A stretch of DNA of 64,000 nucleotides from Candidatus Omnitrophota bacterium (GCA_030698625.1 JAUYMS010000048.1:218404-282403), one strand, 5' to 3'; numbered from the stretch's first letter, positions 39,412-57,787 are shown. Translations and numbers: made by a program. Notes: a model not told the origin generated them from the sequence alone.

Positions 39412-39669
39412 ATGGATAACGGTCACGAAAATCCCGAGGAAGCACCGATTCCGCCTCCACAGAATCAGATCATGACTCTTCAACAGGTCGCCGACTATCT
39501 TGGATTGCACCATCTGACTATCTACAAATTGGTGCAGGAGAGAAAAATTCCCGCCGCTAAAGTCGGCGGAAGCTGGCGATTCAAGAAAGATGTCCTCGAT
39601 CAGTGGATCGAGCAGGATATGGCGCAGAGGGGCAGTCGAAGCGGTCGAAACGGCCGCAACGGAAACTAG
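39412..39669 (+). CDS. small excisionase-family helix-turn-helix DNA-binding protein (HTH_17/MerR-superfamily)
   Basis: The segment [46 protein letters not shown] matches the excisionase-type HTH. It is followed by an Arg/Gly/Asn-rich tail. Confidence 0.75.
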
Positions 39670-39676
39670 AATCGAC

Positions 39677-41998
39677 ATGAACGACGAACAAAGGCTACCA
39701 CCGGCAGCCGATGATGTTAAGCGTCTCCGTGACGCTGAGTCAAAGGCTCGTACGATCCAAAAACAGAGCGAGCAGATTCTGTCCGCGATTACTTCGATTT
39801 TGATCGGCATCGACCGTGATGGGAAAGTGACCCATTGGAATTTGATTGCTGAGGAAACCTTCCGTATCGCGTCCAAGGATGCCATAAAACAGAGTTTGAG
39901 ATCCTGTAAGATCGATTGGGATTTTGAGCTTCTCAATCGGGCGATTTCCGAAGTGATGGAGAAAAGACAAAGTATCCGGATGAAAGATCTGAGATTCAAA
40001 CGAGTGAATGGGAAAGAAGGACTTCTTGGTTTTAGTGTGAATCCAATCGTCGGTGAAGCCGACGGCGACTGCGGCATACTTCTATTGGGAGCGGATATTA
40101 CCGAGCGGCGGCGGGAACAAGCGCAGCTCAAGAGCCATGCCGAGGCCCTTGAGATTGCCAAAGCACGCATCGAGGAAGAGAAGCTCAAGGATCATGCCCT
40201 CCTTGAAAGCATCGGTGACGGGGTTATCGCCACCGATCGAGAAGGACGCGTTATCCTAGCTAATACCCCTGCGGTATCCATGTTTGGATGGGATAGCCAG
40301 GCTATCCTCGGCAAGCCGATTACCGAATCGTTGGTACTCCAGGACGAGAGGCGCTCCTGGATCCCCGAAAACGAGCGCCCCATACCGGTAGCACTGAAGA
40401 CCGGCAAGAAGACTCGCATGGAGGCCTACTTCGTGCGTCCCGATGAATCGCGGTTTCCCATTGCCATAACCGCGTCGCCCATTATTTTTGAGAATAAGAT
40501 TATCGGCGTCATTGAAACAATTCGTGACATCTCTCAGGAAAAAGAGATCGACCGCATGAAAACGGAGTTTATTTCGACCGTCTCGCACGAGTTGCGGACT
40601 CCGCTTACCACGATCCGTGAAGGTGTGGCCCAGGTACTCGAAGAATTGCTCGGCCCGCTCAACGACGACCAAAAGGAATTCTTGGATATCGCACGCCGCG
40701 AAGTCGACCGCCTTGCGGCCATTATTAATGACCTGCTCGATATTTCGAAGATAGAATCCGGAAATATTACATTCAAAAGGGTCCATGTGAACGTGAATGA
40801 GCTCATTAAGAGGGTTGTCGCCAATTGTCAGAGTTTGATTAAGAGCAAAGAACTGACATTGGAAACCGTGTTGCCTGAGCATGCCGTTGAGGCTTTCCTG
40901 GATCAAGATAAGATGGTGCAGACAATCACTAACTTTGTTTCAAATGCCTATAAGTTTACCGAGCCGGGAGGATCGATTCGGGTGGGTCTTAAAGACTCTG
41001 AGACGGAGCTTTTCATCTATGTCGAAGACACAGGCATTGGCATCGGCGAAGACGACGTCCCAAAACTTTTCAACAAATTTGTTCAGATCGGACGTACAGC
41101 CGGTCCGGGCATTAAAGGCACGGGACTCGGACTGACCATCGCGAAGAATCTTATTCAGATGCACGGAGGGAAGGTCTGGGTAGAATCTGAAGTCGGAAAA
41201 GGCAGCAGGTTTACTTTTAGTATCCCGAAGACCAAAAAAGAATTTGTGGCTCAGGAAAATGTAAATCACGGAATTAGGGACTATTCCGGAAACGGAAAGC
41301 CGTTGTCGCTCATCCTCTGGAAAATGGAATCCGCAAACGGAGGTGCGAACGGTGCCTCAACCGACAATCTCCGCAGCGTTTTTGAAGCAGCGGGACGTAA
41401 TATCCAGGAGATCATGAACAACGAGGCAGAAGTTTACCCCATCGACGTCAACGAGGGATTTATTTTGCTGCCGGGTTACAGCAAGGAGAAGGCCATGGCG
41501 GTTCGTGACAAATTGACGCAGGGCACGCGCGAATTCGTCGACCAACTGCGAAAAGAGGGCCCCGTAGAGATGAACGTACAGTTTGGCGTTTCCACTTACC
41601 CCGAAGAGGCCGTCACCAGCAAGGACCTTCTACTCAAAGCCGAAATATCGCTGAAACAGGGCTATCTGGGTGCCGAGAGAAGGGCGCATACGCGTACGGC
41701 CTTTGAAATGAACATCAGTTTGGCGTCAGAGCCCGGGCAGGCGGTGGATTCGCAGACCGTCGACATCAGCGCTGGAGGCATGAGGATCTGCTGTGGTAAC
41801 GAGCTGCCGGTCGGTAGTGTCCACGAAGTCCTCTTCTCGCTTCCGAAGGATCATGGAGTCGTACAGGCGAAAGGAGTCGTCGTTTGGTCGCAGAAGGGCA
41901 ATGAGGACGCGGGGTATATCTGCGGCGTCAAATTTGTGGGCATGTCTGCGGCCCATCAAGAGAAACTTAACGGTTTTATAAAAAGAGAACTGGCTTAG
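39677..41998 (+). CDS. cytoplasmic multi-domain sensor histidine kinase: PAS x2, HisKA, HATPase_c, degenerate GGDEF-like domain, C-terminal PilZ
   Basis: The start is placed at MNDEQ, 8 nt after the HTH stop. The protein has no transmembrane helix. It carries the H-box [12 protein letters not shown] and the N/G boxes. A GGDEF-like segment follows (...[24 protein letters not shown]...[11 protein letters not shown]...) that lacks the GG[DE]EF motif. The C-terminal PilZ domain has the RAHTR and DISAGG motifs. Confidence 0.85.
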
Positions 41999-42016
41999 GA
42001 CGTGCAGGAGGAAACC

Positions 42017-42400
42017 ATGGGAAAGAAGAAAGTTTTATTTGTTGATGATGAACCGATGATTGTCAAAATTATGAAGAGTCGGCTGGAAGCTAATAATTAT
42101 GAGGTTTTTACAGCCCTCTCTGGGCAAGAGGCTATTGAACTGGCCCTGGGGCAGAAACCCGATCTCATCCTCTTGGATATCCTTATGCCCGATTTGAATG
42201 GCTATGAGGTATGCGGGCGTCTGAAATCCAACCCGAGGACAAAGGAAATTCCGGTGATCATGTTCACGGCGTTGCAGGAGGATGAATGCAAGGAGCGTTC
42301 CGAAGAAATGGGAGCCGTCGAAATCATCCGCAAGCCCTTTGTCGGCGATCTTGTGAGGGCTATCCGCAAAGTATTTGAGCAGGAATTCAGCAGCCAGTAG
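42017..42400 (+). CDS. single-domain response regulator (REC only)
   Basis: An AGGAGGA ribosome-binding site precedes the ATG at 42017. The protein has VLFVDDEP...DLILLDILMPDLNG...RKPF and no output domain. Confidence 0.85.
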   Translation: MGKKKVLFVDDEPMIVKIMKSRLEANNYEVFTALSGQEAIELALGQKPDLILLDILMPDLNGYEVCGRLKSNPRTKEIPVIMFTALQEDECKERSEEMGAVEIIRKPFVGDLVRAIRKVFEQEFSSQ

Positions 42401-42492
42401 CAGGTTTCGGCAGGAAATTATTGTCACTAGGAACGGTATCGTGGCTCTTGAGAAATTGAAGGGAGAATTCCTAACAGGAATCAAACCAGATC

Positions 42493-44877
42493 ATGCTAAA
42501 AGGCTCGAGTATCTCGTCACGGCTCATTTTCGGATTTTTGGCTATTGCGCTTCTCGTAGCCGGGGTGAGCATTTTTTCCTTTCGTGAGCTGCGGAAGGTT
42601 GAAGGACCTCTTCGAGCTGATATCCCCCGCGCCCTGACCGAAATCGAAACCACATCACGCCTCGACAGCCTTGCCACGAAAATCCGCCTCTATGACCAGA
42701 TCCTGACGGAAGCCGCGCGCGAATATGTATCTACGGGCGATCGGCAATGGAAATTCCGCTATAAGGATTTCGAGCCCAAGTTGGATGCGGCGATCAAGGA
42801 GGCCATTCACCGCGGAGATCATGAGGACGAGAGTCTTTTCTCGGAGCTTCAGAAGGCGAAGCTCGTTTTTGTCCACGTGGAACTCCAAGCGCTCGGTTAC
42901 GTAGGGCAGGGTCAACAGGAAGAGGCGGCTCAAGTGCTTGAGAGCCTTGATTACTGGAACGCTAAACGCGAATACAAGAAAATTCTGGAAGAGTATGCTG
43001 AAAGACGCAACCAGAAATTCGACGACACCTTTCAAGTCACGGCGAAAAATGTTGAATCTATTGTTCAGGCGACGAGGAAAACGGTTCGTGATTCCATTAA
43101 CCTGCTCTCCATTCTCAGCGGATTGGCCCTTGTGCTCGCCATAGCGCTGGGAATTTTCATTGCGCGCTCAATTTTGAATCCGCTTCGATCCTTGCAGCAG
43201 GGCACCGAGATCGTCGGTAAAGGCAATCTTGACCATCGCATTGAAACCAATTCCAAGGACGAAGTCGGGCAGTTGGCGCGGGCCTTTAACGAGATGTCTC
43301 TGAAATTAAAGAATTCCTATGCCGGTCTTGAAGGCAAGGTGAGGGAAAGGACCAAGGAACTCGGCGATGCTCTCGAGGATCTCGAGAAAGCCAAGTCTCA
43401 GATCGAAGAAGAAAAGGCCAAGGACGAAGCCATTCTTGCCAGCATCGGAGAGGGCATGATTGCAACCGATCGAGAGGGCAAGATCATGATGATGAACAAG
43501 CAAGCCGGGCTGATGCTCGACTTGCGCGAACGGGACGTTGTGGGCAAAGTCTTCGGGGATGTGATCCGCAACCAGAACGATAAGGGGGAACCCATTACGG
43601 GTGAGCAGTCTCCTCTTTACAACTCGTTGTCGACCGGAAAGAAAATCGTCGCAACAGCCTATTACGAGCGCAAGGACAGAACTAAATTTCCTGCCGCAAC
43701 TACGGTATCACCGATCGTTCGCGACGGGAAAACAGTAGGTGCCATTGGGATATTTAGGGACATTACGCACGAAAAAGAAGTTGATCGGATGAAAACTGAG
43801 TTTATATCTACCGTATCTCACGAATTGCGAACTCCTCTCACCGTCATTCGCGAGGGGGTTTCGCTTGTCATGGATAACATCCTGGGGCCGACAACCGAGG
43901 AGCAGCAGAACTTTCTTAATCTGGCGCTTAGCGACATTGATCGCCTAGCCCGCATTATCAATAATCTACTCGATGTCGCCAAGATTGAGGCCGGAAAAAT
44001 GGGTCTCAAGCGGGAGCGAACTGATGTTAACGAACTTGTCCGGGATGTTGTTTCCACTTTCAAGGCCAGTGCCGAGGGCAAGGGGTTAAAAATCAGGCCT
44101 AAAGTTCCGGCCGAAAAACTCGAGCTTTATATTGATCGGGATAAGATCATCCAGGCCTTTACCAATATTATCGGTAACTCCCTCAAGTTTACCGAGAAGG
44201 GACATATTGATGTTTATATCGAAGATAAAGGAGAGTGCTTGGAATGCGGCATATCTGACACGGGCCGAGGGATGTCCGAGCAGGATTTAGCAAAACTCTT
44301 CAGCAAGTTTCAGCAGTTTGGCCGTACTGACGGCGGCGGCGAGAAGGGAACCGGCTTAGGCCTGTCCATCGCAAAGGGGATTGTGGAACTCCATCAGGGA
44401 AAAATCTGGGTTGAAAGCGAACTCGACAAGGGGACAAGCTTTAAGTTTCAAATACCCAAGTATTCCCCGAAGGAGCTCTTCCGTGGGTATGTTGTGCGCG
44501 GACTGCGCGACGCTGTCAACCAGGGCTCGTCGCTTTCGGTGTTTTCCTTTGGCGTCAAGGATTGGGAAAACGTGAGACGGGACCTAGGATCCAATAAATC
44601 TCCCGAAGTTGTGGAATACCTGGAAGATGCCGTGAAGGCGCACCTCAAGAACCGAGAGGACCAGACAGTCACTGACGATAACGCCGTATTGATGGTGTTG
44701 CCGGCCATTGAAAAGAAGAAGGCGGAGTTCGTTGCCGCGGATGTTAAAAAATCGTTCGCCGATATTTTGGCCAAACACGGATTCAACGGCAACATTCAGA
44801 TGGACTACCGACTTGCAAGTTATCCTGACGATGGTAGTACGGAAGAAGATCTGCTCTGTATCGTGAGAGGAACTTAA
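42493..44877 (+). CDS. membrane sensor histidine kinase: TM, ~190-aa periplasmic domain, TM, HAMP, PAS, HisKA, HATPase_c, degenerate GGDEF-like domain
   Basis: It is a paralogue of the 39677 kinase: the two share a long block from EEEK(L/A)KD...IATDREG... through ...[25 protein letters not shown]. It carries the HAMP motif (LARAFNEM). The C-terminal segment ...TDDNAVLMVLP...YRLASYPDDGSTEEDLL is GGDEF-like without the motif. Confidence 0.85.
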   Translation: MLKGSSISSRLIFGFLAIALLVAGVSIFSFRELRKVEGPLRADIPRALTEIETTSRLDSLATKIRLYDQILTEAAREYVSTGDRQWKFRYKDFEPKLDAAIKEAIHRGDHEDESLFSELQKAKLVFVHVELQALGYVGQGQQEEAAQVLESLDYWNAKREYKKILEEYAERRNQKFDDTFQVTAKNVESIVQATRKTVRDSINLLSILSGLALVLAIALGIFIARSILNPLRSLQQGTEIVGKGNLDHRIETNSKDEVGQLARAFNEMSLKLKNSYAGLEGKVRERTKELGDALEDLEKAKSQIEEEKAKDEAILASIGEGMIATDREGKIMMMNKQAGLMLDLRERDVVGKVFGDVIRNQNDKGEPITGEQSPLYNSLSTGKKIVATAYYERKDRTKFPAATTVSPIVRDGKTVGAIGIFRDITHEKEVDRMKTEFISTVSHELRTPLTVIREGVSLVMDNILGPTTEEQQNFLNLALSDIDRLARIINNLLDVAKIEAGKMGLKRERTDVNELVRDVVSTFKASAEGKGLKIRPKVPAEKLELYIDRDKIIQAFTNIIGNSLKFTEKGHIDVYIEDKGECLECGISDTGRGMSEQDLAKLFSKFQQFGRTDGGGEKGTGLGLSIAKGIVELHQGKIWVESELDKGTSFKFQIPKYSPKELFRGYVVRGLRDAVNQGSSLSVFSFGVKDWENVRRDLGSNKSPEVVEYLEDAVKAHLKNREDQTVTDDNAVLMVLPAIEKKKAEFVAADVKKSFADILAKHGFNGNIQMDYRLASYPDDGSTEEDLLCIVRGT

Positions 44878-44881
44878 TTCT

Positions 44882-45247
44882 ATGCCTAAAAAGATCTTGG
44901 TTGTCGATGACGAAACGAATATTGTGCTTGTGATTAGTTCACGGTTGAAGGCAAACGGGTTTCAAGTTGTTACGGCCGAATGCGGACGGGATGCTCTCGA
45001 AAAAGCGGACAGCGAAAAACCGGACCTTATCGTGCTGGATGTCATGATGCCTTCACCCGATGGCTATGAGGTGTGCCGTATGCTGAAAGGAGACCCGAAA
45101 CATAAGAACGTGCCTGTCATTATTTTGACGGCGAAGGTCTCGGAGCAGGACCGGTCAAAAAGCGCTGAATGCGGGGCAGATGCGTTTGTCACAAAGCCCT
45201 ATAGCCCGAGCGAATTGCTGGGAAAAATAAAGGATCTCATTCCTTAA
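44882..45247 (+). CDS. single-domain response regulator (REC only, PilH-like)
   Basis: Contains ILVVDDETN...DLIVLDVMMPSPDG...TKPY. Confidence 0.85.
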   Translation: MPKKILVVDDETNIVLVISSRLKANGFQVVTAECGRDALEKADSEKPDLIVLDVMMPSPDGYEVCRMLKGDPKHKNVPVIILTAKVSEQDRSKSAECGADAFVTKPYSPSELLGKIKDLIP

Positions 45248-45263
45248 CGCGGAAGGAGCATTG

Positions 45264-46985
45264 ATGCTGGTGGATCACGATCAGAATGCCTTAGGTGAAA
45301 AACTGGTTCAGGCAGGAGCCCTGACGCAGGAGCAATTCTCTGCGTCGGCAGGCGATGCGACTGCGAACGGGACTTCTCTTGTTCGTCAGCTCTTGAGCTC
45401 CGGCTTGGTTTCCAAGGCAAAAGTTTACGAGACCCTGGCCGACGTCTACGGGGTGCCTTACATTGATATTTCGAATTTTCAAATATCCCCGGATGCCATC
45501 AAATGCCTCTCGGGAGAAATCGCTCACCGCTACCGGGCAATTCCCCTCTTCAAGATCGGCGAGACCTTAAATGTCACTATGGAGAATCCTGCTGATGTGG
45601 GGGCTGTGGACCGTATTACTCAGAAAAGCAAATGCCATGTCGATGTCTGTTTATCGGCGCCCGAAGATATCGAAGAGGCACTGCGAACTCATTACGGTTC
45701 CGGCAACGCCATCAATGAGTTGTTGGCAACTTTTAGCAAGGAGAGAAGCCATCGGTACAGGGAATTGCAGAAGAAACCCGCACAGGGTTTGTCCTTCATG
45801 CCGGCTCCGGTCAAGAAGGAGATGGGAGTCAAGCCTGTTATTCAGCTCGTGGATCTTATCATCAAGCAGGCCTACGAGGAGGGCGCCAGTGATATTCACA
45901 TCGAGCCGGAGGAAAAGATGCTCCGCGTACGCTATCGGGTCGATGGGGTTCTGCATGAGGCCGCTGAGCCGCCCAAAGAAATGGAGTCGGAGATCATTTC
46001 CCGTATTAAAGTACTTGCTGAAATGGACATTGCCGAAACGCGCATTCCACAAGACAGCCGCATTAAAATGGATATTCAAGGAAAGAACGTGGACATGCGT
46101 GTCTCCACCATGCCGACCGTTTATGGCGAAAATGTGGTAATCCGCATACTCAAGGACGCCGGCGCGGTTTTAGACCTTTCGAGTCTGGGTTTTACCGACG
46201 AGATGAAAAAGATGTTTGAAGGCATCATCCGGCATCCTTACGGCATGATCCTGGAGACGGGCCCGACCGGTTCCGGTAAAACGACCACACTCTATGCGGC
46301 GTTACGTATGATCAATACCGTTGAGCGCAACATTGTTACCATCGAAGATCCGGTGGAATACAAACTGCCGCTCATCCGCCAAATTCCAGTCAATGTGAAA
46401 GCAGGCCTGACTTTTCCGACGGCCCTGCGCTCGATCTTAAGGCAGGATCCCGATGTCATTATGGTCGGTGAAATACGCGACCAAGAAACCGCGGAAATCG
46501 CGATCCAGTCTGCACTGACAGGCCATCTCGTGCTCTCAACACTTCATGCCAACACGGCGGCTGGGGTGGTGACTCGTCTTGTTGATATGCATGTGGAGCC
46601 GTTTCTGGTCGCATCGTCTGTAATTGGGGTCGTATCTCAGCGTCTTATACGGTCTATTTGTTCCAAGTGCAAAGAGGAGCACAAGCCGACCGAGCTTGAA
46701 TTGACAGCGCTCAAGTGGGAAGGTCCGGAGCCGCTGCCGGCCTTCAAAGGGAAGGGCTGCCGCCAGTGTCACGACACGGGGTACAAGGGCCGTGTCGGTG
46801 TTTTTGAAATGATGCGCATGAATGATCGCATTCGAAAAAAGATCGTGTCAAACGCGTCAGCGGCCGAAATTCAAAGTGAGGCACGCGAGACCGGTAATGC
46901 AAGTTTGCGCGACGATGCCATCGTTAAAATCAAGATGGGAATGACGACAATTGAAGAAGCGTTAAAGTCAGTCGAGATAGAATAG
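45264..46985 (+). CDS. type II secretion/type IV pilus assembly ATPase (GspE/PilB family) with N-terminal GspE_N/MshEN-like domain
   Basis: Walker A motif GPTGSGKTT, with Asp and His boxes and a tetracysteine cluster (CSKC...CRQCHDTG). The N-terminal roughly 150 aa are GspE_N-like. Confidence 0.9.
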   Translation: MLVDHDQNALGEKLVQAGALTQEQFSASAGDATANGTSLVRQLLSSGLVSKAKVYETLADVYGVPYIDISNFQISPDAIKCLSGEIAHRYRAIPLFKIGETLNVTMENPADVGAVDRITQKSKCHVDVCLSAPEDIEEALRTHYGSGNAINELLATFSKERSHRYRELQKKPAQGLSFMPAPVKKEMGVKPVIQLVDLIIKQAYEEGASDIHIEPEEKMLRVRYRVDGVLHEAAEPPKEMESEIISRIKVLAEMDIAETRIPQDSRIKMDIQGKNVDMRVSTMPTVYGENVVIRILKDAGAVLDLSSLGFTDEMKKMFEGIIRHPYGMILETGPTGSGKTTTLYAALRMINTVERNIVTIEDPVEYKLPLIRQIPVNVKAGLTFPTALRSILRQDPDVIMVGEIRDQETAEIAIQSALTGHLVLSTLHANTAAGVVTRLVDMHVEPFLVASSVIGVVSQRLIRSICSKCKEEHKPTELELTALKWEGPEPLPAFKGKGCRQCHDTGYKGRVGVFEMMRMNDRIRKKIVSNASAAEIQSEARETGNASLRDDAIVKIKMGMTTIEEALKSVEIE

Positions 46986-46987
46986 AT

Positions 46988-48241
46988 ATGAATTTCAAAT
47001 ATAAAATTCGAGACGGTAAAGGTCATGTGTCGACAGGTTTTGGCCAGGCCGAAAGCCGCGATTCGTTGATGAGGGAATTGCGTGAACGCGGATTTTCTCC
47101 CATCGCGATCATTCCGGCGGCCAAGGACGAGACCGGAAAGGCCGGGGGGAATACTGTCGCCTCGCGTAAGAAGAAATCGATCTGGAATATGAAGATTGGG
47201 CGGGTCGTCAAAGACGAAGACCTTCTCCTCTTTACCCGAGATCTCTTGAGTTTGGTCCATGCCGGTTGCCCTCTGGTCTCCGGTATTCGTGATGTGGCAA
47301 GCCAAATCAAAAACGTGCACTTCCGGGATATTTTGGAGAATATTAGCGATGATATCAATGCCGGAAGCAAGCTGTCGGAGGCTCTAAGGCGGCACCCTGC
47401 CGTCTTCTCGCCCTTTTTTGTTAATACCATTCAGGCCGGCGAGCAGTCGGGAAGGCTTGAGGCAATTTTGGGACGGATGATTCAGACTTTGGACAACGAC
47501 CTTGAGACAAAGATGATGATAAAAAATGCAGTAAGATATCCGGTTATCGTTCTGTGCTTTTTGGGCGCTGCGTTTACAGTGATTGTCACGGTGGTCATTC
47601 CGAAGATATCCGGTGTCTTTACGAAATTTGACACAGCGCTTCCGCTACCGACCCGTATCCTGATTGCGATTGGAAATTTCAGCCAATCCTACGGACTTTT
47701 TATCGCCATTGCGTTGATCGGCGCTGTGATACTTGTCTCGTTTTATAAGAAGACAAAGCCGGGCCGCTTTGTGTGGGACGGCATAATGCTTCGATTACCT
47801 GTTTTTGGGGAACTGATCAAGAAGGCGGCGTTGGTGCGTTTCGCCACCGCACTGCAGACTTTATATGCAAGCGGCATCGTTATTACGGATGCCCTTGCGA
47901 CGTGTGCAGTGGTTGTGGGAAACGAGGTCGTGGGAGCCGCAATTCTGCAGTCTGCCGAGCGTATGAAAGAAGGGCTTTCACTTTCAGAGGCGCTCAAGGA
48001 GAATCAGCTATTTCCGCCCATGGTCATCGGCATCATTACGATGGGAGAAAAGACGGGAAATTTGGAAAACATGCTTGCGGAAATCGTGGAACATTACGGC
48101 CGCGATATCCGCTACATGACAAAAACTATCGGCACATTGATCGAACCCATCCTCACGGTCTTTTTGGGCCTGATGATTTTAGTTTTAGCTTTGGGGGTCT
48201 TTTTGCCGATGTGGAACGTGATGAAGCTATTTCGTCACTAG
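46988..48241 (+). CDS. type II secretion/type IV pilus platform protein (GspF/PilC family)
   Basis: A 417-aa protein with two T2SSF repeats and three transmembrane helices. It lies 2 nt after the ATPase gene. Confidence 0.88.
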   Translation: MNFKYKIRDGKGHVSTGFGQAESRDSLMRELRERGFSPIAIIPAAKDETGKAGGNTVASRKKKSIWNMKIGRVVKDEDLLLFTRDLLSLVHAGCPLVSGIRDVASQIKNVHFRDILENISDDINAGSKLSEALRRHPAVFSPFFVNTIQAGEQSGRLEAILGRMIQTLDNDLETKMMIKNAVRYPVIVLCFLGAAFTVIVTVVIPKISGVFTKFDTALPLPTRILIAIGNFSQSYGLFIAIALIGAVILVSFYKKTKPGRFVWDGIMLRLPVFGELIKKAALVRFATALQTLYASGIVITDALATCAVVVGNEVVGAAILQSAERMKEGLSLSEALKENQLFPPMVIGIITMGEKTGNLENMLAEIVEHYGRDIRYMTKTIGTLIEPILTVFLGLMILVLALGVFLPMWNVMKLFRH

Positions 48242-48292: not shown

Positions 48293-48685
48293 GTGAAGTA
48301 TTCTAAGAAAAATCAAAGAGGGTTTACCTTAATTGAATTGGTCATGGTGATCGTCATCCTAGCCGTATTGGGTGCCGTAGCCATTCCGATTTATGTCGAC
48401 CTGTCGGGTGAGGCGAATTCGGCGGCAGAGGAGGGCGTTGTCGGCGGTGTTCGCGCCGGCGTTGCGACCTACTTTATCGATCCGGCTCGCGGAAACCGCA
48501 CATCGTATCCGTCGGCATTAGGTACGGCCACAAACGCCGCTTGTAGTAAAACCAATGCGTGTTTCGCCACTGTGTTGCAACAAGGCGGCGTGACGCAGGG
48601 TTGGACAAAGACCGGTGCGTTGGCGTATACGGGTCCGAATGGCGGAACCTATACCTTTAACACGACGACAGGGGCCTTCTCGTAA
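48293..48685 (+). CDS. major pilin/pseudopilin with prepilin-type N-terminal cleavage/methylation signal
   Basis: A GTG start preceded by an AGAGGAGG ribosome-binding site. The class III signal ...QRG|FTLIELVMVIVIL is present. The protein is 130 aa. Confidence 0.85.
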   Translation: MKYSKKNQRGFTLIELVMVIVILAVLGAVAIPIYVDLSGEANSAAEEGVVGGVRAGVATYFIDPARGNRTSYPSALGTATNAACSKTNACFATVLQQGGVTQGWTKTGALAYTGPNGGTYTFNTTTGAFS

Positions 48686-48805: not shown

Positions 48806-48838
48806 GGTTCGTAAACTTTGCCGGGGAAGGGTCAATTT

Positions 48839-49384
48839 ATGGGAGGAAAGCCGAAAAAATGGATTTCCGGTTTTACCGTCATAGAATTGGTCATGGCCAT
48901 TGTTGTTATGACGGTCGTAAGTGTAACGGCCGTCCCTATCCTGCAAAACCAGCCGCGGACGCAGGCTCAGTATGCAATTTATAAGGTCCGCTCCGATCTC
49001 CGTTACGCGCAGATGACCGCCATACAGACGCAGTTACGCACGCGTGTCGTGTTTAACTCTGCCGCTGAATCCTATGACCTGGAAATCGAAACTTCGCCCG
49101 GCACATGGGTCGCTTTGGCCGAACCCAATGCCGGCCAGAACTATAGCGTTACGTTTCCTTCTGACGCCGACTTTCCAAACGTGGATATCTCTGACGTCGA
49201 TCTGAATAACTTAAATACGGTTATTTTCGACAGCGTAGGGGCGCCTTTTGATGCGAATGACACTGCACTGACAGAACCGGCTTATATGGAATTAAATTCA
49301 ATTTACCGTATCGAATTCCAGAGACAGACCGGCAACATGCTCATTACTGTAGTGGGCGGCGGCGGAGGTCCCTGCGGGGGGTAA
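48839..49384 (+). CDS. minor pseudopilin (GspH/FimT-like) with prepilin N-terminal signal
   Basis: ATG at 48839. Contains ...KKWISG|FTVIELVMAIVVM. The C-terminus ends in a Gly run, GGGGGPCGG. Confidence 0.75.
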   Translation: MGGKPKKWISGFTVIELVMAIVVMTVVSVTAVPILQNQPRTQAQYAIYKVRSDLRYAQMTAIQTQLRTRVVFNSAAESYDLEIETSPGTWVALAEPNAGQNYSVTFPSDADFPNVDISDVDLNNLNTVIFDSVGAPFDANDTALTEPAYMELNSIYRIEFQRQTGNMLITVVGGGGGPCGG

Positions 49385-49387
49385 AAT

Positions 49388-49780
49388 ATGCGGCGACAAA
49401 CAACATTCCAGCGCGGTTTCACGATGATTGAATTGATCATCGCTATCGTGGTCCTCTCTATTGCTATCGGCACGCTGGGGAATGTTCTGGCCAATATGAC
49501 AACTCAGGCGGTATTACCAAGGTCTCTGAATACATCGACCCATTTGGCGGAGCAAGAGCTCGAGCGCGTCTCCGGCCTTCGGTTTTCAGCGGTTGCTAAT
49601 GAGGGCCCCACATCTTACACGGGGAATTTTTCGGATTACAGTTACCAGGTGGCGGTTTCCGCCGTGCCTGCAACCCTCGCGACAGATCCGGCGCAGGCGC
49701 AATACAAACAGGTTGCTGTGACGGTTTCCCATGCGACGGGGGGGTCCGTCACCTTGACGACGGTGGTAACAAACAACTAG
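49388..49780 (+). CDS. minor pseudopilin (GspI-like) with prepilin N-terminal signal
   Basis: Contains ...FQRG|FTMIELIIAIVVL. The protein is 130 aa. Confidence 0.75.
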   Translation: MRRQTTFQRGFTMIELIIAIVVLSIAIGTLGNVLANMTTQAVLPRSLNTSTHLAEQELERVSGLRFSAVANEGPTSYTGNFSDYSYQVAVSAVPATLATDPAQAQYKQVAVTVSHATGGSVTLTTVVTNN

Positions 49781-49782
49781 AT

Positions 49783-50361
49783 ATGATACGAACAATCAAT
49801 GAAAAATGTTTTCGCCAACGCACGAGCTCGCAAAGAGGATTCACGTACTTAGAGATGATAATGGCCATCGTGATCATCAGCGTGATCGCGACGATCGCAG
49901 GGCCCGTCCTCGCCATGGCGGTGGATGCCATTACTCTGCATCTCGACGACGCGAACCTGGGAGAGGGGGGACGGATTGCCATCGCGCGAATGACGCGGGA
50001 AACACGCCGTCTTAGGAACGATGAAAGCGTTGTCACGGCGACGGGTGTCGAATTTGAATTTGTGGATGTCGATGACGTGCAGATCCGATATCGGCTTGTG
50101 GGCACTGACTTGATGCGGCGCGAAAGCGCGGCAGGGACAGAGTCTGACTTAATCGCGCAGGTGCAAGCCTCAGGCCTTGCCTTTATTTACTATGACGATG
50201 ACGGGAATACGATCGCTACGCCGGCCGCCGGACTGGGAACCAGTACCGATATCAGGCGTATCGAAATCCAGTTGACGCTGAGCGACGGGACCAACGCGCT
50301 GCCGCTTGTTACGATTGTCAGACCGAGGAACTTGAGACATGAGTCAAATCTATTTTCGTAA
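49783..50361 (+). CDS. minor pseudopilin (GspJ/PulJ-like) with prepilin N-terminal signal
   Basis: Contains ...SQRG|FTYLEMIMAIVII. The protein is 192 aa. Confidence 0.75.
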   Translation: MIRTINEKCFRQRTSSQRGFTYLEMIMAIVIISVIATIAGPVLAMAVDAITLHLDDANLGEGGRIAIARMTRETRRLRNDESVVTATGVEFEFVDVDDVQIRYRLVGTDLMRRESAAGTESDLIAQVQASGLAFIYYDDDGNTIATPAAGLGTSTDIRRIEIQLTLSDGTNALPLVTIVRPRNLRHESNLFS

Positions 50362-51853
50362 ACGAAAAGAGGAACGCGGGGTCGTCCTCGTGGGAACGCT
50401 GGGGCTGCTGGTGTTTCTGGGCCTGTTTGGCGCCGTCGGAACTTCTGTGACGTTGAGCAGCGTTGCGGTGCATGCGACCCATATCCAGGGGACTCAGTCT
50501 CTGGCGATTGCCGACGCGGGAGCGGAGTGGTATTTAGAGCAACTAGAGGGTGATGCGGACTGGACAAATGAGGTAAATCAAACCCTGACCTTTGCCGAAG
50601 GCAGTTTCACTATTTCTATTGCTGCTGCGACAGCGGCTCAAGTCACTTTTACTTCAACGGGATCCGTAGTATCACCGTTGAGCGGGGTTACCGTTCAGCG
50701 CACGGTGACCATGACCGCAGAAAAGCTTCCGCCCGCTTTTAAGTTTGCTCTGTACCAAGGCCGAGATCCGGGGAGCAACTTTCGTCTTACAACGACAAGT
50801 GGTAATCACACGACCGTCACCGGCGATATGTGGTCCCGCGGTGTTGTACGCATTGATGTTAACAACTCGGTAACGGGAACCACATATGTTGCCGACTCGG
50901 AGAGTGTGATCGGAGCCGGCACGTATACTGCAAAGCTGATTGCGGCGCCTTACCTTTCGATGCCCGTCATTGATGCTACCGCCTATACGACACTGATCTC
51001 TGGTTACAACGCGCTACTGGATGCGAACTCGTCAACGGTGAGCCGGACGCTCACGAATACAAATTTTGACATCGCAGTGGCGAGTCCGGATTGTTCGGGA
51101 AGTCCCGTCGTCTGTAACTTCCGCAATTTCACGACACGTGGTTTAGGCGGCACCGTGAATATTACCGGTAATGGAACGATTTGTATCAATCGTACGGGCA
51201 GCTTACATAACGGCAGTCAGGTAAATAGCACGAGTAATCTCGTCATCACGCCCGATGCCGGAGGCTCGATTACCGTCATCACGAACCGGAATCTGAATAT
51301 CGGAAAGAACAACAACCCGACTGTCAGCTGTAACGGGAATTGCACTTTTTACTCGAGGACGCAGGCGAGTAATCAACGTCTTCGCATCTTCGGGCAAAAT
51401 ACGTCTCTCAACGACGTGCTGCTGATGAGTAACCGCAGGGTCACGGTACAAAACGGTGCGGACATCGGATCCGATAGCGTTGCGTTTGTGAATTATGCGG
51501 GTGATAACAGTAATAACCGCTTTGAAATCTTTGGGGCCGCCGGTGTGACGACCTTCGACGGCACCTTGATAAGCCTGTCGCGGCGTACCGATGGACTCAC
51601 GATCAGAAACGGCGGCGCCAGCAAAGCGAATGTCTCGGTGACGGGGCTCGTCTATGAGCGGGGAACCGCAACGACGGGGGGATGCTTCATTGAGGATGCG
51701 TCCGTGTCCGGGAGCGTGGTTTGTAACGTTTATCAGAATAATCGAATCCGAAACGCTGCGATTATCTACAGTACGGCCAGTTTGCCGTCAACACCGCCGG
51801 CCGGCTTTGAAAACTCCGTATCTGTCCAATCTAATTCCTGGGACGGACTCTAG
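50339..51853 (+). CDS. large PilX_N-domain/GspK-like pilus-associated protein; Ser/Thr/Asn/Gly-rich and beta-helix-like
   Basis: The N-terminus ...RGVVLVGTLGLLVFLGLFGAVGTSV resembles PilX_N. About 400 aa of low-complexity T/S/N/G-rich sequence follow, with many N-x-S/T triplets. Confidence 0.65.
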   Translation: MSQIYFRKRKEERGVVLVGTLGLLVFLGLFGAVGTSVTLSSVAVHATHIQGTQSLAIADAGAEWYLEQLEGDADWTNEVNQTLTFAEGSFTISIAAATAAQVTFTSTGSVVSPLSGVTVQRTVTMTAEKLPPAFKFALYQGRDPGSNFRLTTTSGNHTTVTGDMWSRGVVRIDVNNSVTGTTYVADSESVIGAGTYTAKLIAAPYLSMPVIDATAYTTLISGYNALLDANSSTVSRTLTNTNFDIAVASPDCSGSPVVCNFRNFTTRGLGGTVNITGNGTICINRTGSLHNGSQVNSTSNLVITPDAGGSITVITNRNLNIGKNNNPTVSCNGNCTFYSRTQASNQRLRIFGQNTSLNDVLLMSNRRVTVQNGADIGSDSVAFVNYAGDNSNNRFEIFGAAGVTTFDGTLISLSRRTDGLTIRNGGASKANVSVTGLVYERGTATTGGCFIEDASVSGSVVCNVYQNNRIRNAAIIYSTASLPSTPPAGFENSVSVQSNSWDGL

Positions 51854-52507: not shown

Positions 52508-53338
52508 ATGAAGACCATTGCCATTGCAAACCAGAAGGGTGGATGCGGTAAGACCACAACTGCCGTCAATCTCAGCGCTTGTCTCGCACAGCGAGGGTGC
52601 CGCGTCCTGCTCGTCGACCTCGATCCCCAGGCACACGCGACTCTGGGTGTCGGGATTGATCCGTACAAATTGGAGGAATCCGTCTACGACGTCCTCCTTA
52701 AACCGGACCGTTCGGTGCAGGATATCGTCCGGCGTACCGAGGTCAAAAACCTGTGGGTTGCGCCGTCGAACATTCTGCTTTCGGGTGCCGATATCGAGTT
52801 GGTCAATCGCATGGGACGCGAGAGGGTTCTGGAGGAGGTCTTTTCGAATGTTACAACTCTGTATGACTACGTCATCATCGACTGTGCGCCTTCCCTGAGC
52901 CTGCTCACCGTGAATGCCATGAATTTTGTGCAGGAGATCCTTATCCCGATTCAGGCCCATTACTATGCCATGGAGGGCATGAAGCAGCTCTTCAGCACCA
53001 TCGATGAAGTCAAAAAGCGCCTAAACCCCGATCTGAAAATCCTAGGCATTCTGTTGACCATGGTGGACACGCGCACGAACATCTGCCGGGAAGTCGTCCG
53101 AGGGGTTCGTGATTATTTTCAGGATAAGGTTTTTAAGACTGAAATCCACATCAACGTAAAATTAACCGAAGCGCCGAGTGCCGGTAAACCCATTACGGTC
53201 TATGACCCCTGTTCGGTAGGGGCAAAGGAATACGAAGATTTGGCCAGCGAGGTTCTCGGCGTCGAGAAGGAAGTTCCTCGGGAAACGACAACCGCACCCC
53301 AAGGAGAAACGGTCTTCCATGGCGAAGAAGCGGTCTAG
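52508..53338 (+). CDS. ParA/MinD-family P-loop ATPase
   Basis: Deviant Walker A motif KGGCGKTTTAVNL, together with DLDPQ and IIDCAPSLS. The protein is 276 aa. It lies between the pseudopilin genes and the PilM-like gene. Confidence 0.85.
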   Translation: MKTIAIANQKGGCGKTTTAVNLSACLAQRGCRVLLVDLDPQAHATLGVGIDPYKLEESVYDVLLKPDRSVQDIVRRTEVKNLWVAPSNILLSGADIELVNRMGRERVLEEVFSNVTTLYDYVIIDCAPSLSLLTVNAMNFVQEILIPIQAHYYAMEGMKQLFSTIDEVKKRLNPDLKILGILLTMVDTRTNICREVVRGVRDYFQDKVFKTEIHINVKLTEAPSAGKPITVYDPCSVGAKEYEDLASEVLGVEKEVPRETTTAPQGETVFHGEEAV

Positions 53339-55058
53339 CGGCCTTAGCAAGAAAATACCGGCGATATTTCAAGGTGTTCCCGACATCGAATCGACTTCGC
53401 GGCGGGCGTCCGCTCAGGAGCACCGTGCACAGAGCGGCACGAAAAAGGGCTTCGGAGCACGGCGCGCCCCCGGAACCTTTCGTATCCTGTTTGAAGTAGG
53501 CGGTTCTACTGCCAAGGCAATGGGTGTTGCGAAGCGGGGCGGGCGATGGACAGTCGTCGAATGCCGGACGTTTCATGCGCTTACGGACAAGCAAGGAAAA
53601 GTTGACTTCAAATGGGATGAACTCGGCAAGTGGATCGCCGAGACAACGGCGGAAATTGCGGGCAACTCGTCCTATGAAGCACGTTTACTGCTTGTAGATT
53701 CAGGGATTTATTTAGGGGAGACAGAAAGGCCGGACGTTGCGGCGAAGGAGCTCAAGGAAGCCTTGATATGGCAGGTTGCCGAAAATCTTCCTTTTCCCGC
53801 CGAAGAGTCGACGCTCCGCTTTGAAGAGCATGAAGACAAGGTCCTTGTTGCGGCGGTAGAGAATGTCTATTTAGAGACCGTTTTAAAGTGTTTCCACAGT
53901 GCCGATGTCTATCCGGCTGTGGTGACTTTACTGCCGGTTGCTTATCAGGCCCTCAACGACCAATATGCACCCATTACATCGGGCAATGTTATGGTTATCC
54001 ACATCTCAAAGTTCCGCACTTTTATTTTGGCCTTTCGCGGCGGGGTCTTTCACTCAATACGCGAGCTATCGCTTGGCGGAGATCATATTACGCAGGCCAT
54101 GATGGGTACCCTTGTCGTGGATGCCAATCAAATCAACATTGGTTATGATGAGGCTCAGGCGCTCAAAGAGTCCCTCGGTCTTCCGACCCACAACCTCATG
54201 CCGGACCCCAGCGAACCGAAGCATTCCCAACTCTCAGCGAGAATTCGACCTATCTTCGAGAAAATGGCCAGCGAATTTCGCAGCTCGAGCACTCAATTTG
54301 AACAGGCGATCGGCGGCGAGAAGGTAGAATCGATTTTTCTGGCCGGCGGTGGCGCCGAAATGAATGGCATTCAGGAATATTTTTCCGGTCAATTGAATTT
54401 GCCGGTTAAAAATCTCGATCTCTCGAGCGTTGACCCTTCGTTAAGTACTGCATTGGCCGGTGTGGCAGGCATGGCCTTTGTTCCCGAAAATCGTCTGAAT
54501 TTTGCAAGCACGGAAGACCGCTTGAAGCCGCGCTTTGAAAAGTATCGCGACATTCTAAAGATTGTCATGCTGGGGATAGGGGGTCTCTTATGCCTGGTCT
54601 TGTTGGGTCTGGGGATGCAGATTGTGGGCAAGAAGCAGGAGCTCCGGGAACAGCATGCGGCTTTCCGTGAGATGGGCGGTAGTGATGAAAAGCTAATTCA
54701 GCTCGACTTTATGCTGGAAAAAATCACGGCGACGAAGGATTTGCGCAAAAGCGTAATCAAGCCCGATCCGCCTCATGGCACCGTACTGCGTGAATTAAGC
54801 CACCTGGTAATGCCGGCAATGGTATTTCGCGAGATGGACTTTCGGAGGGCTCCGAGCCCGACAGCGCAGTTTAAAGGGATTATTCAATTGGGGCCGCGTT
54901 CTCCGGACATCATCCTATCGGAATTTCTCGAGGGCTTGAACAAATCATCCGTGTTCCGCGATGCCCGCCTCACATCCCGCAGCGGGTCCGAAGAGGGGAC
55001 TGCAGGTGAATTGCAGTTCAACGTTCAAACGGAATTGGTGGTGGGCGATGAATCTTAA
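53319..55058 (+). CDS. PilM(actin-like)-TM-PilN fusion, GspL-like inner-membrane assembly protein with a ~55-aa basic N-terminal extension
   Basis: An AAGGAG ribosome-binding site precedes the ATG at 53319. A PilM-like actin fold (FEVGGSTAKAMGV...) is followed by the single transmembrane helix ILKIVMLGIGGLLCLVLLGLGM and a periplasmic PilN-like domain. Confidence 0.75.
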   Translation: MAKKRSSGLSKKIPAIFQGVPDIESTSRRASAQEHRAQSGTKKGFGARRAPGTFRILFEVGGSTAKAMGVAKRGGRWTVVECRTFHALTDKQGKVDFKWDELGKWIAETTAEIAGNSSYEARLLLVDSGIYLGETERPDVAAKELKEALIWQVAENLPFPAEESTLRFEEHEDKVLVAAVENVYLETVLKCFHSADVYPAVVTLLPVAYQALNDQYAPITSGNVMVIHISKFRTFILAFRGGVFHSIRELSLGGDHITQAMMGTLVVDANQINIGYDEAQALKESLGLPTHNLMPDPSEPKHSQLSARIRPIFEKMASEFRSSSTQFEQAIGGEKVESIFLAGGGAEMNGIQEYFSGQLNLPVKNLDLSSVDPSLSTALAGVAGMAFVPENRLNFASTEDRLKPRFEKYRDILKIVMLGIGGLLCLVLLGLGMQIVGKKQELREQHAAFREMGGSDEKLIQLDFMLEKITATKDLRKSVIKPDPPHGTVLRELSHLVMPAMVFREMDFRRAPSPTAQFKGIIQLGPRSPDIILSEFLEGLNKSSVFRDARLTSRSGSEEGTAGELQFNVQTELVVGDES

Positions 55059-55650: not shown

Positions 55651-56039
55651 TGAAGGCGAGCCGAGCAGCGAAATTTTTGGGGTTAATCGCGGTGATTGCG
55701 TGGGCGGTATTTGAGGGCCCCGCGGTGTCCGTTAACGCAGCTGTTGAAGGAGGAATGATTCAGCGCGGCTGGGGAAGGGATCCGTTTGTTCCCCTCGATT
55801 ACGAGCGGGCAGCGGTAGCGGCCAAAGAGAAGCTCATGCCGGAGGCGGAGACTAAAGATGAAAGTTATTGGCTTTCGGGTGTGCTCTATCGCAAAGGGCG
55901 CAGCGTTGCGATCATTAACCGGGTTTTGGTGCGAGAGGGTGATGAAATCTTCGGTGCGAAAGTCGTTAAGATATTGCCGGACCGTGTTCTGATGAGTAAA
56001 GCAGGCAAAGAAATCATAATTCGATTGGGCGTGGGATGA
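55647..56039 (+). CDS. PilP/GspC-like periplasmic protein
   Basis: A signal or anchor sequence, with a C-terminal beta domain (...GVLYRKGRSVAIINRVLVREGDEIFGAKVVKILPDRVLM) typical of PilP. Confidence 0.6.
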   Translation: MMKASRAAKFLGLIAVIAWAVFEGPAVSVNAAVEGGMIQRGWGRDPFVPLDYERAAVAAKEKLMPEAETKDESYWLSGVLYRKGRSVAIINRVLVREGDEIFGAKVVKILPDRVLMSKAGKEIIIRLGVG

Positions 56040-57787
56040 GACATTCATTCGTGAAGAAAATCTTTGGAATCAGCCTCAGCTTCATGATGGCTCTGACCGG
56101 TCCAGGGTTAGTCCGGGCGGAAGTTACGGGGCCGCAATTCGGCCAAAACGGGGCCGGCGAGGAGGATACTTACCTGCAACTCCACAACGCGGATATTCAG
56201 GACGTGCTTCGTCTTATCGCGGAGGAATATGATCTTAACATTGTCATCGCTGACGATGTTGTCGGCACGATTTCAATGCGTCTTAAACGTGCGACTCTTG
56301 TCAACACGCTTGATGCGATTCTTCTTGCACGCGGTTATGATTATGACATCCACGACAACATCATTCGCGTGGCACCCGTCGCCATTGTTGATGCCGAGCG
56401 GGCCAAGCGCGTGGATAAGCAAGAGTTGGAGGCCTTGGTTCCGGAAGTCATTGCTCTGAGTTATCTTGATGCCAACGACATCCTTGGGGTGGTTCAGTCG
56501 CTACTCACATCGCGCGGGTCCGTTCGGGCTCTGGAACGGCGCGCTCATAAGGGATTCCGTTTCGGGTCGGGATCCTCCGGTGACACCGGGGGTTCTTCCT
56601 CGTCGGGAGGGAACTCTGCGTCTTCCGGAGGTGATTTCGGCGGGCTCATCAGGTCGCGCGTCGAGGGCGATAACGACAAGCCGCGCTCAAATACCTTGCT
56701 TGTGGTTGATATCCGATCTCAGATTGAGCGGATCAAAGAAGTGATTCGTGAAGTTGATGTGGCTCCGCAACAAGTTCTGATTGATGCCAGAATCCTTGAG
56801 GTCGATACCGACACGCTCGAAGACCTCGGTCTCGATTTTAACAGTGAGAATTCTTTGACTGCGAGCGGAGATAAGAGCAACGCCCTGAACTTTGACCTTA
56901 ACAGCGATACTTCCTCCACGGGTGTCAATTCAGGCATTTTCACGACCGCCTTTCCGGGGGCATCAGATGCCGGGCTACGCACGATCTTCCGCCGTTTAAA
57001 CGGAGAAGATTTCACGGCGATATTGCATCTCCTTTTACAGGATGAACGGACTAAGACGCTTTCGGCGCCCAAGATTTTAACCATAGAAAATCAGGAGGCA
57101 GCCATTCTGGTCGGTGAGCAATTTCCGATCTTTGAGTCGAATGTCTCCGATCAGGGTACGGTTACTGAAACCCTGTCGTTTTTTCAACCGATCGGCATCA
57201 GCTTGCAGGTTCTTGTCCAGGTCACTCCGAATAAAGATATCAACATGATCATCCATCCGACAGTAAGCTCTATCGGAGCCTTTGTGACGGGAACGAGCGG
57301 GCTGACTCAGCCGCGAATCAATATCCGCGAAGCCGATACGCGCGTACTTATCAAGAACGGAGAAACGCTGGTAATCGGAGGCCTGCTTGAGGATATTGTC
57401 GATGAGAAAAAATATGGTATCCCTTTCCTGAAGGATATGCCCCTCGTGGGGAATCTGTTCACACGCAGACAAGTTGACATCGATCAGCGCAACTTGCTTA
57501 TCTTTATTACACCGCGTGTTGTCGGTTTGGATGATGCAGCGCTTTCTGAGACCGAACAGCTGACTTATCAGGCGCTCGAAGACCCGGCCGCATACGGTTT
57601 TCTCCACGAGCGGCGCTCAACGATCGACAGCATTTTCGAGGGCGCAAAAACGAACTTTGAAACGGGTCATCCTACCGTTGCCCGCGCACAATTCCTGCGC
57701 GTGTTAAGTCTGGACCCGCATCACAAGGGGGCTATCAAGCATCTTAAGGAGTTGGAGGCCCTGCCGCGGGAGCGGCCCATTGGGTAA
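56036..57787 (+). CDS. secretin (GspD/PilQ family) outer-membrane channel
   Basis: A signal peptide, then N-domains, a Gly/Ser-rich linker and the secretin domain (...VLIKNGETLVIGGLLED...GIPFLKDMPLVGNLF...LLIFITPRVV). Confidence 0.9.
   Translation: MRHSFVKKIFGISLSFMMALTGPGLVRAEVTGPQFGQNGAGEEDTYLQLHNADIQDVLRLIAEEYDLNIVIADDVVGTISMRLKRATLVNTLDAILLARGYDYDIHDNIIRVAPVAIVDAERAKRVDKQELEALVPEVIALSYLDANDILGVVQSLLTSRGSVRALERRAHKGFRFGSGSSGDTGGSSSSGGNSASSGGDFGGLIRSRVEGDNDKPRSNTLLVVDIRSQIERIKEVIREVDVAPQQVLIDARILEVDTDTLEDLGLDFNSENSLTASGDKSNALNFDLNSDTSSTGVNSGIFTTAFPGASDAGLRTIFRRLNGEDFTAILHLLLQDERTKTLSAPKILTIENQEAAILVGEQFPIFESNVSDQGTVTETLSFFQPIGISLQVLVQVTPNKDINMIIHPTVSSIGAFVTGTSGLTQPRINIREADTRVLIKNGETLVIGGLLEDIVDEKKYGIPFLKDMPLVGNLFTRRQVDIDQRNLLIFITPRVVGLDDAALSETEQLTYQALEDPAAYGFLHERRSTIDSIFEGAKTNFETGHPTVARAQFLRVLSLDPHHKGAIKHLKELEALPRERPIG

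Follow-up and report, generated by a model that had tools for sequence, protein, structure and literature searches.

Histidine kinases with degenerate GGDEF tails, one also carrying a PilZ domain, in a conserved type IV filament cassette of Candidatus Omnitrophota

Cyclic diguanylate (c-di-GMP) is known to reach a handful of histidine kinases, through ad hoc sites (CckA, RavS and ShkA), through the inhibitory site (I-site) of a GGDEF domain in SgmT or through the free-standing PilZ adaptor HapZ. Here, we describe two neighbouring kinases, HK1 and HK2, encoded in a stretch of 64,000 nucleotides from a Candidatus Omnitrophota bacterium (GCA_030698625.1 JAUYMS010000048.1:218404-282403), hereafter the window, from the start of which all positions are counted. 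Both end in a degenerate GGDEF domain (dGGDEF), HK1 additionally carries a PilZ domain, and the pair lies within a conserved gene cassette beside type IV filament genes. What is new is the canonical PilZ receptor within a kinase, placed behind a GGDEF domain that appears dead in every kinase examined. Two-component kinases that respond to c-di-GMP are already known, and the domain fusion as such would not astonish a specialist.

The described protein closest to HK1 and HK2 is SgmT of Myxococcus xanthus, which consists of GAF, kinase, receiver (REC) and GGDEF domains and has DigR as its partner (PMC3509222). In SgmT, as in HK1 and HK2, a histidine kinase ends in a GGDEF domain of degenerate active site (A-site), and the protein is tied to behaviour that depends on type IV pili (PMC3509222). 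It differs in that an intact RxxD I-site (RHPD) binds c-di-GMP, in that a REC domain separates the kinase from the GGDEF domain and in having no PilZ domain (PMC3509222); in HK1 and HK2 the I-site is lost and the GGDEF domain directly follows the ATPase domain, with a PilZ domain added in HK1. In Pseudomonas aeruginosa the PilZ-type c-di-GMP receptor HapZ (PA2799) is described as targeting the histidine kinase SagS, the phosphotransfer of which it alters (PMC10333796). HapZ is a separate adaptor acting in trans on a hybrid kinase, whereas HK1 has its PilZ domain in cis, following a dead GGDEF domain in the same protein. CckA, ShkA and RavS are switched to phosphatases by c-di-GMP or have their phosphotransfer altered by it; the sites lie in the ATPase domain of CckA and RavS and in a pseudo-receiver of ShkA, and, unlike that proposed for HK1, none is derived from a PilZ or GGDEF domain. 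The PilZ fusions recorded by Galperin and Chou involve REC, GGDEF, EAL, HD-GYP, MCP and CheC domains and include no histidine kinase. When the literature was searched for a described kinase–PilZ fusion or kinase–GGDEF family, only SgmT was found.

Kinases and CheY-like receivers that are encoded with type IV pilus genes and control them are familiar from PilS–PilR and from the Chp system, with its single-domain receivers PilG and PilH. PilS, which is not known to carry a GGDEF or PilZ tail, passes its signal to a sigma-54 activator, and Chp uses a CheA-type kinase; in the present cassette, by comparison, DNA-binding proteins are represented by a small HTH_17 protein alone. In FimX–PilZ–PilB and in the MshEN ATPases c-di-GMP controls the pilus ATPase through degenerate GGDEF/EAL, PilZ or MshEN domains and no kinase is known to take part, whereas here the degenerate GGDEF and PilZ domains sit within a kinase and the neighbouring ATPase has an MshEN domain as well.

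The interval 39677-44877 contains HK1, a single-domain receiver (RR1) and HK2, and a second receiver (RR2) lies just past its end; these and all of the features given below are on the + strand. HK1 (39677..41998, 773 amino acids) and HK2 (42493..44877, 794 amino acids) were placed at exactly these coordinates by an initial annotation made from the sequence alone. HK1 is a predicted soluble protein with no transmembrane-like segment in a hydropathy scan and has the order PAS-PAS-HisKA-HATPase_c-dGGDEF-PilZ, in which two PAS domains, HisKA, HATPase_c and PilZ are recognized by Pfam and GGDEF falls below threshold. Its kinase core (40556..41233) comprises HisKA (residues 294-362, 73.8 bits) and HATPase_c (residues 409-519, 98.6 bits). 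HK2 is a membrane kinase with two transmembrane-like segments (about residues 5-33 and 200-231) bracketing a helical, periplasmic sensor of about 170 residues, followed by HAMP, PAS, HisKA (68.3 bits), HATPase_c (99.1 bits) and dGGDEF. The H-box histidine and the G1 and G2 boxes were located in both proteins (in HK1 by pattern search as SHELRTP at residues 303-309, DTGIGI and GTGLGL), and both are accordingly classed as predicted kinases of class I (HisKA). Neither contains a REC domain in the Pfam search, so they are not hybrid histidine kinases, and none of the NCBIfam equivalogs (WalK, PnpS, PhoR, AtoS and others) reaches its cut-off for either protein; the best match is WalK, with 287.9 bits for HK1 and 303.9 bits for HK2 against a cut-off of 725. 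An NCBI protein (P0001) from a Candidatus Omnitrophota metagenome-assembled genome (MAG), annotated as 'ATP-binding protein', has the same sequence as HK1.

The two kinases are clearly paralogous, as the initial annotation had proposed. In a BLASTP comparison they share 41% identity over 510 residues (E = 2e-113), and the alignment continues through the tail that follows the ATPase domain, to residue 652 of HK1 and residue 788 of HK2, the latter near the stop codon. A rough neighbour-joining tree of 177 tailed kinase cores, built without support values and used solely to place the two proteins relative to one another, puts HK1 and HK2 in separate clades. Since each also has orthologs in other Omnitrophota, and since the tandem pair recurs in three of the other loci compared below (L001, L004 and L005), the duplication is old.

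The tails of both kinases have a genuine GGDEF fold which is complete and compact. The Pfam GGDEF model by itself scores below its cut-off of 23.8 bits on both (18.4 bits for residues 568-661 of HK1; 13.0 bits for residues 666-787 of HK2, covering profile positions 18-143 of 161), so that of the two domains expected from a Pfam search only PilZ was returned above threshold. The relationship is established by more sensitive comparisons. A tail of about 140 residues homologous to that of HK1 is present in 110 of the 120 closest kinase homologs, and a family profile of 34 tails matches solved GGDEF domains with E values of 7.9e-16 (6d9m), 1.5e-14 (5euh), 4.4e-13 (9t28) and 2.7e-6 (PleD). The match to 9t28 aligns profile positions 5-144 with residues 12-157 of a chain of 168, which is nearly the whole domain. 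A profile made from HK2-type tails alone (A4) also finds solved GGDEF domains (E = 9.9e-10), and some relatives exceed the Pfam GGDEF threshold in their own right (P0122, 52.1 bits; P0125, 41.4 bits). A homolog query with the HK1 tail alone returned no match even though the identical protein is in the database, which reflects a word-index limit and is not evidence.

Structure prediction agrees with the profiles. The AlphaFold2 model of the HK1 tail has a predicted local distance difference test score (pLDDT) of 86.7 and superposes on 4urq in Foldseek with a target-normalized template-modelling score (TM-score) of 0.73 and an r.m.s. deviation of 2.7. The model of the HK2 tail has a pLDDT of 92.4 and a predicted TM-score (pTM) of 0.85, and GGDEF domains make up all of its top 50 Foldseek matches, with query-normalized TM-scores of 0.7-0.83. 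With these profiles, models and residue mapping the degenerate domain extends over residues 521-663 of HK1 (41237..41665) and over residues 659-794 of HK2 (44467..44874), where it forms the end of the protein. The proposal that the tails are GGDEF-like is thus borne out by homology; they had been taken to correspond to the C-terminal half of the domain, which is incorrect, as the whole fold is present. All that is missing or replaced is the final GGDEF helix and strand, which bear the phosphate-binding Lys/Arg residues in active enzymes.

Alignment of 110 tails with three solved GGDEF sequences allowed the functional residues to be mapped. The GG[DE]EF motif, reported as lacking in both proteins, is indeed replaced, with a one-residue deletion, by V-NEG in HK1 (residues 591-594) and by D-NAV in HK2. 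The positions of the metal-binding Asp and the guanine-binding Asn/Asp are occupied by K, A and R in HK1 and by G, R and P in HK2. Of the 110 tails, 12 retain the strand-1 metal-binding Asp and 93 have a deletion in place of the first Gly of GG[DE]EF; in a wider set, GG[DE]EF is found in none of 178 kinases with the tail compared with 20 of 28 non-kinase GGDEF–PilZ proteins. The GGDEF tails of HK1 and HK2 are, as judged from these residues, catalytically dead. The position of the RxxD I-site, sought five residues upstream of GG[DE]EF, reads NEAE in HK1 and NRED in HK2. Because both the A-site and the I-site are lost, neither tail is expected to make c-di-GMP or to bind c-di-GMP or GTP in the known ways. 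An SgmT-like I-site receptor was considered for the dGGDEF domains of HK1 and HK2 and is ruled out by NEAE and NRED; other members of the family may be receptors of this kind. We note that several family members (in the clusters of P0193, P0094 and P0102) carry the JGI label 'diguanylate cyclase (GGDEF)-like protein'. As the catalytic motif is absent from all 178 kinases, labelling members of this family as cyclases is probably a mistake.

These residues also bear on the question of whether the dGGDEF domain might itself be the sensor, binding GTP in the manner of the allosteric GGDEF domains of the PdeA type, c-di-GMP through an I-site like those of SgmT, PopA and PelD, or some other nucleotide, with the PilZ domain secondary. 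There is some residual conservation in keeping with this: the Asp of RxxD is retained in 93 and the Arg in 48 of the 110 tails, a group of short kinase–dGGDEF–PilZ proteins represented by P0075 has an intact RVTD, and the fourth position of GG[DE]EF is occupied by Glu throughout the HK1 orthologs. In the window proteins, however, the I-site Arg is an Asn in both and the Asp is a Glu in HK1. None of the guanine-binding Asn/Asp, the metal-binding Asp and the GG turn survives, each having been replaced or deleted, and the C-terminal helix with the phosphate-binding Lys/Arg is missing or replaced. We consider a nucleotide-sensing dGGDEF domain to be quite improbable here.

The C-terminal domain of HK1 (residues 667-768; 41675..41980) is a canonical PilZ domain, in agreement with the initial annotation. 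It scores 58.2 bits against PF07238 (cut-off 22.5) over profile positions 1-100 of 102; HK2 has no PilZ match in Pfam. The RxxxR motif is RAHTR (residues 669-673; 41681-41695) and the DxSxxG motif is DISAGG (residues 696-701; 41762-41779), separated by 22 residues, which is within the 20-30 residues expected. In the AlphaFold2 model, the strands within tail residues 163-238 correspond to the six-stranded β-barrel of the fold and a helix spanning 242-256 to its C-terminal helix, and Foldseek matches it to 4xrn (target-normalized TM-score 0.79) and to MotI (5vx6, E = 1e-7). In the models of the C-terminal regions, both tails match GGDEF structures and that of HK1 matches PilZ structures too. Both PilZ motifs are retained in 30 of 32 kinase–PilZ proteins. 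Among HK1 and eight orthologs, the tails of which are only 26-34% identical to that of HK1, ERR...R and the final Gly are invariant and the D and S are found in eight of nine. From this conservation we infer that the PilZ domain of HK1 binds c-di-GMP.

The two motifs differ in their surroundings. DxSxxG lies on the barrel and RxxxR in the linker between dGGDEF and PilZ, which is the sole poorly ordered segment of the model (pLDDT from below 50 to 69), as would be expected for a hinge or switch that is ordered by its ligand. We also note that many HK1 orthologs run 10-20 residues past the PilZ helix and end in [FYNIR]-R-K-[STI]-A (for example FRKSA, NRKIA and FRKTA). This ending, which could be a targeting or degradation tag, is seen in P0002 and P0004-P0013 (alignment A3) and is absent from the window HK1 and from P0003.

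A large family of class I kinases, visible in the databases but undescribed, has the ATPase domain followed directly by a dead GGDEF domain, and HK1 and HK2 are members of it. When 1.84 billion representatives were searched exhaustively with the profile, there were 98 matches at E <= 1e-30 and 14,390 at E <= 1e-10. The best 150 of these fall into three groups: kinases with the tail at their extreme C-terminus, a smaller number of kinase–dGGDEF–PilZ proteins, and GGEEF–PilZ proteins of about 400 residues. The named sources are Candidatus Omnitrophota/Omnitrophica and one MAG each of Auribacterota, Spirochaetales, 'Verrucomicrobiae' and 'Actinobacteria', a taxonomic spread that rests on the few source names attached to the records.

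The third group (P0139, P0199 and about 25 others, of about 390-410 residues) has the same two-domain module as the HK1 tail in the same order, and its members match the HK1 tail profile in one stretch across both domains. They differ from HK1 in having no kinase core and in that 20 of 28 contain GG[DE]EF with Pfam GGDEF scores of at least 160 bits, so that they are presumed to be active cyclases. These fusions may be the source of the HK1 module, or may represent a class of product-sensing cyclases.

The surroundings of the kinase genes were compared in nine long loci, namely the window and eight others chosen from family members of different clades. In seven (the window, L001, L005, L006, L007, L008 and L010) a kinase–dGGDEF gene is followed by one or two single-domain receivers, an ATPase of the T2SSE(MshEN) type, a T2SSF protein and pilins, which gives the suggested tie to the downstream secretion or pilus genes its best support. 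The kinases concerned are of several types, being a short kinase–dGGDEF–PilZ protein in L006, a GAF-PAS kinase in L007 and a REC-kinase in L008. Upstream synteny unites the window, L001 and L005, which are taken as a single context, and the upstream genes of L006, L007, L008 and L010 are unrelated, making five independent contexts. Because the same order occurs in all five, the kinase–receiver–filament unit is a conserved cassette and not a local accident. The association of the family with adjoining pilus and secretion genes in many genomes indicates that it is probably a dedicated regulator of those genes. Omnitrophota have been reported to carry GGDEF domains, small pilZ genes and conserved loci resembling type II secretion systems (T2SS), in a study that makes no mention of these kinases (bioRxiv 10.1101/2023.11.21.568195).

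The same comparison allows us to consider whether the tails are functionless, decaying relics of a kinase–cyclase fusion, their nearness to pilus genes being inherited synteny only. The long synteny upstream of the window, L001 and L005 means that these three are not independent, and L004 has the kinases with no pilus genes; both facts would fit such a relic. Against it, the gene order is repeated in four further loci with unrelated upstream genes, and the tail is kept in 110 of the 120 closest kinase homologs, across deep clades. The tails also give confident folded models (pLDDT 87-92), and the PilZ ligand motifs are clearly constrained. In our opinion the relic explanation is extremely improbable.

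In our view, the data can be read as describing a two-component cassette dedicated to the type IV filament system, in which c-di-GMP enters through the PilZ domain of HK1 and shifts phosphorylation, a reading to which we give about an even chance. HK2 would read an extracytoplasmic signal through its transmembrane, sensor, HAMP and PAS regions, and HK1, being cytoplasmic, would read PAS-sensed signals together with c-di-GMP. The nucleotide would be clamped between the RxxxR linker and DxSxxG on the PilZ barrel and, once bound, would fix the C-terminal module against the adjoining ATPase domain; contact of this kind is plausible because the N-terminal helix of dGGDEF begins about five residues past the last strand of the ATPase domain. 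Fixation would then shift the kinase/phosphatase balance one way or the other, and the altered phosphorylation of RR1 and RR2 would affect how the filament system is assembled or expressed. The residues of the first helix of the dimerization and histidine-phosphotransfer (DHp) domain that follow the phospho-accepting His are nearly alike in HK1 and HK2 (in the latter TVIREGVSLV), and for this reason the two kinases may converge on both receivers. The dead GGDEF domain would act as a structural adapter or docking module and not as a nucleotide site. Such a mechanism would resemble that of CckA with a built-in PilZ domain, or HapZ–SagS brought together in cis. The intact kinase cores found by Pfam support it, as do the conserved PilZ motifs, the recurrent gene order, the GGDEF domains and small pilZ genes reported from Omnitrophota and the precedents for c-di-GMP control in CckA, ShkA, RavS and HapZ–SagS.

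Several observations weigh against this reading. The two-domain model of the HK1 tail has a pTM of 0.60, with no fixed interface between dGGDEF and PilZ and no contact with the kinase core predicted, which suggests that there is no fixed interface in the apo state. PilZ is missing from most family members, HK2 included, and so does not explain the role of dGGDEF. All of the family members stem from uncultured organisms. In two of the nine loci (L004 and L009) no pilus genes adjoin those for the kinase and receiver, and no gene for an active cyclase or phosphodiesterase was found within the 64-kb window. Finally, binding of c-di-GMP to the C-terminal GGDEF domain of SgmT sequesters the kinase, altering its localization, and leaves its in vitro kinase activity unchanged (PMC3509222).

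The behaviour of SgmT is the main precedent for an alternative in which c-di-GMP on the PilZ domain of HK1, perhaps together with dGGDEF, sets the location or partners of the kinase, for example by docking it on the MshEN ATPase or the base of the pilus, and leaves the phosphorylation chemistry unaffected. Proteins with PilZ and degenerate GGDEF–EAL domains are known as partners of a pilus ATPase (FimX–PilZ–PilB), and the PilZ protein of the FimX complex is among the weak PDB matches (4f48 and 3dsg). The kinase gene is, moreover, tightly linked to that of T2SSE(MshEN) in the seven loci of nine described above. The contact is putative only, however, and the kinase core and neighbouring receivers are conserved and intact, so that phosphotransfer is clearly part of the function. 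Control by localization is compatible with control of phosphorylation and both could act together; taken by itself, we regard it as somewhat unlikely.

A broader proposal gives the dead GGDEF tail a dedicated role in output or docking, by which it would physically couple these kinases to the MshEN ATPase or to the CheY-like receivers and make them a new class of regulators of type IV filaments in Omnitrophota and neighbouring candidate phyla, with c-di-GMP control added by PilZ in HK1 and by a retained I-site in others. We put this forward tentatively, as doubtful rather than probable; if it is true, the system could govern an attachment or predation apparatus in this lineage. If instead c-di-GMP acts through PilZ on phosphorylation as set out above, HK1 would be a simple, soluble, single-protein model of a PilZ switch on kinase output, and a pseudoenzyme domain, in some records labelled 'diguanylate cyclase-like', would have gained an assigned function. 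On the same premise, the kinases would be the likely regulators of the pilus or T2SS-like loci for which a part in attachment and predation has been proposed in Omnitrophota, where experimental genetics is almost absent. A uniformly dead GGDEF tail with a fixed association with filament clusters offers a concrete, testable lead in this phylum of putative predators or epibionts.

The cassette in the window begins with a gene for a small HTH_17 (excisionase/MerR-like) DNA-binding protein of 85 residues (39412..39669; Pfam HTH_17, 59.9 bits), directly upstream of HK1. Six of the nine loci (the window, L001, L004, L005, L008 and L010) have HTH_17 directly ahead of the kinase, which includes five of the seven linked to pilus genes, and the proteins are orthologous across loci, with 54-63% identity in those of HK1 type. 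L001 has a second HTH_17 gene directly before the ATPase gene. RR1 (42017..42400; Pfam Response_reg, 90.6 bits) and RR2 (44882..45247; 101.4 bits) are 48% identical. The RR1 open reading frame (ORF) opens at GTG 42002, and the probable start is ATG 42017, which is preceded by AGGAGG. RR2 starts 4 nucleotides past HK2 and ends 13 nucleotides ahead of the gene for a PilB/GspE-type ATPase with an N-terminal MshEN domain (45261..46985; T2SSE 466.7 and MshEN 59.3 bits). This is followed by a PilC/GspF-type platform protein (46988..48241; T2SSF 168.3 bits) and four pilin or pseudopilin genes (48293-48685, 48818-49384, 49388-49780 and 49783-50361), three of which have N_methyl above threshold; the product of 48818-49384 has only a match to GspH, just below threshold (20.9 bits against 21). 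A PilM-like protein (53319-55058; PilM_2 42.2 bits) and a secretin (56036-57787; Secretin 148.7 bits) lie further downstream. Most cassette genes are separated by 4-18 nucleotides with no intergenic terminator on the + strand, a pattern compatible with co-transcription. A scan for promoters and terminators gave counts no higher than in shuffled sequence.

MshE-type proteins have two N-terminal c-di-GMP motifs of the form RLGxxLLxxGLL...Q. In the N-terminal region of the window ATPase the Arg and Gln positions of these motifs read A/S and A/V (ALGEKLVQAGAL, SLVRQLLSSGLV), and because of these replacements the ATPase may not itself bind c-di-GMP. Other GGDEF or PilZ genes were sought in the window as a source of c-di-GMP, and none was found there. 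In L009, from Candidatus Saelkia tenebricola (Omnitrophota), the kinase–dGGDEF gene encodes no PilZ domain, and a stand-alone gene for a PilZ protein of 116 residues (2363-2713) lies about 3 kb upstream, with a second kinase gene directly ahead of it.

The N-terminus of HK1 is unusual among its orthologs. The RR1 ORF is in frame with HK1, separated from it by TAG and one codon (41996-42004), and the orthologs of HK1 are about 130 residues longer. That HK1 and RR1 are a single split or read-through gene was considered and ruled out, as the extra residues of the orthologs form an N-terminal REC-like domain and as RR1 has its own AGGAGG and ATG at 42017. This REC-like domain (about 125 residues) is found in every ortholog of 870-911 residues (P0002-P0014) and is absent from the window HK1. 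Within the region 39412-39800 the HTH_17 gene ends 7 nucleotides before the HK1 start, so the domain has been cleanly deleted and its absence does not come from faulty annotation. By reading of the sequence, the REC domain of at least P0002 lacks the usual acidic pair and may be a pseudo-receiver. Another family member, P0122 (851 residues), contains two complete HisKA-HATPase_c cores in tandem ahead of the dead GGDEF tail. Large ORFs without a Pfam match lie in or beside the filament cluster in the window (50339-51853, 504 residues) and in L001 (15978-17474, 498 residues). Just before the PilM-like gene, and within the pilus and secretion cluster of the window, is a gene for a ParA/MinD-type ATPase (52508-53338; AAA_31, 215.9 bits).

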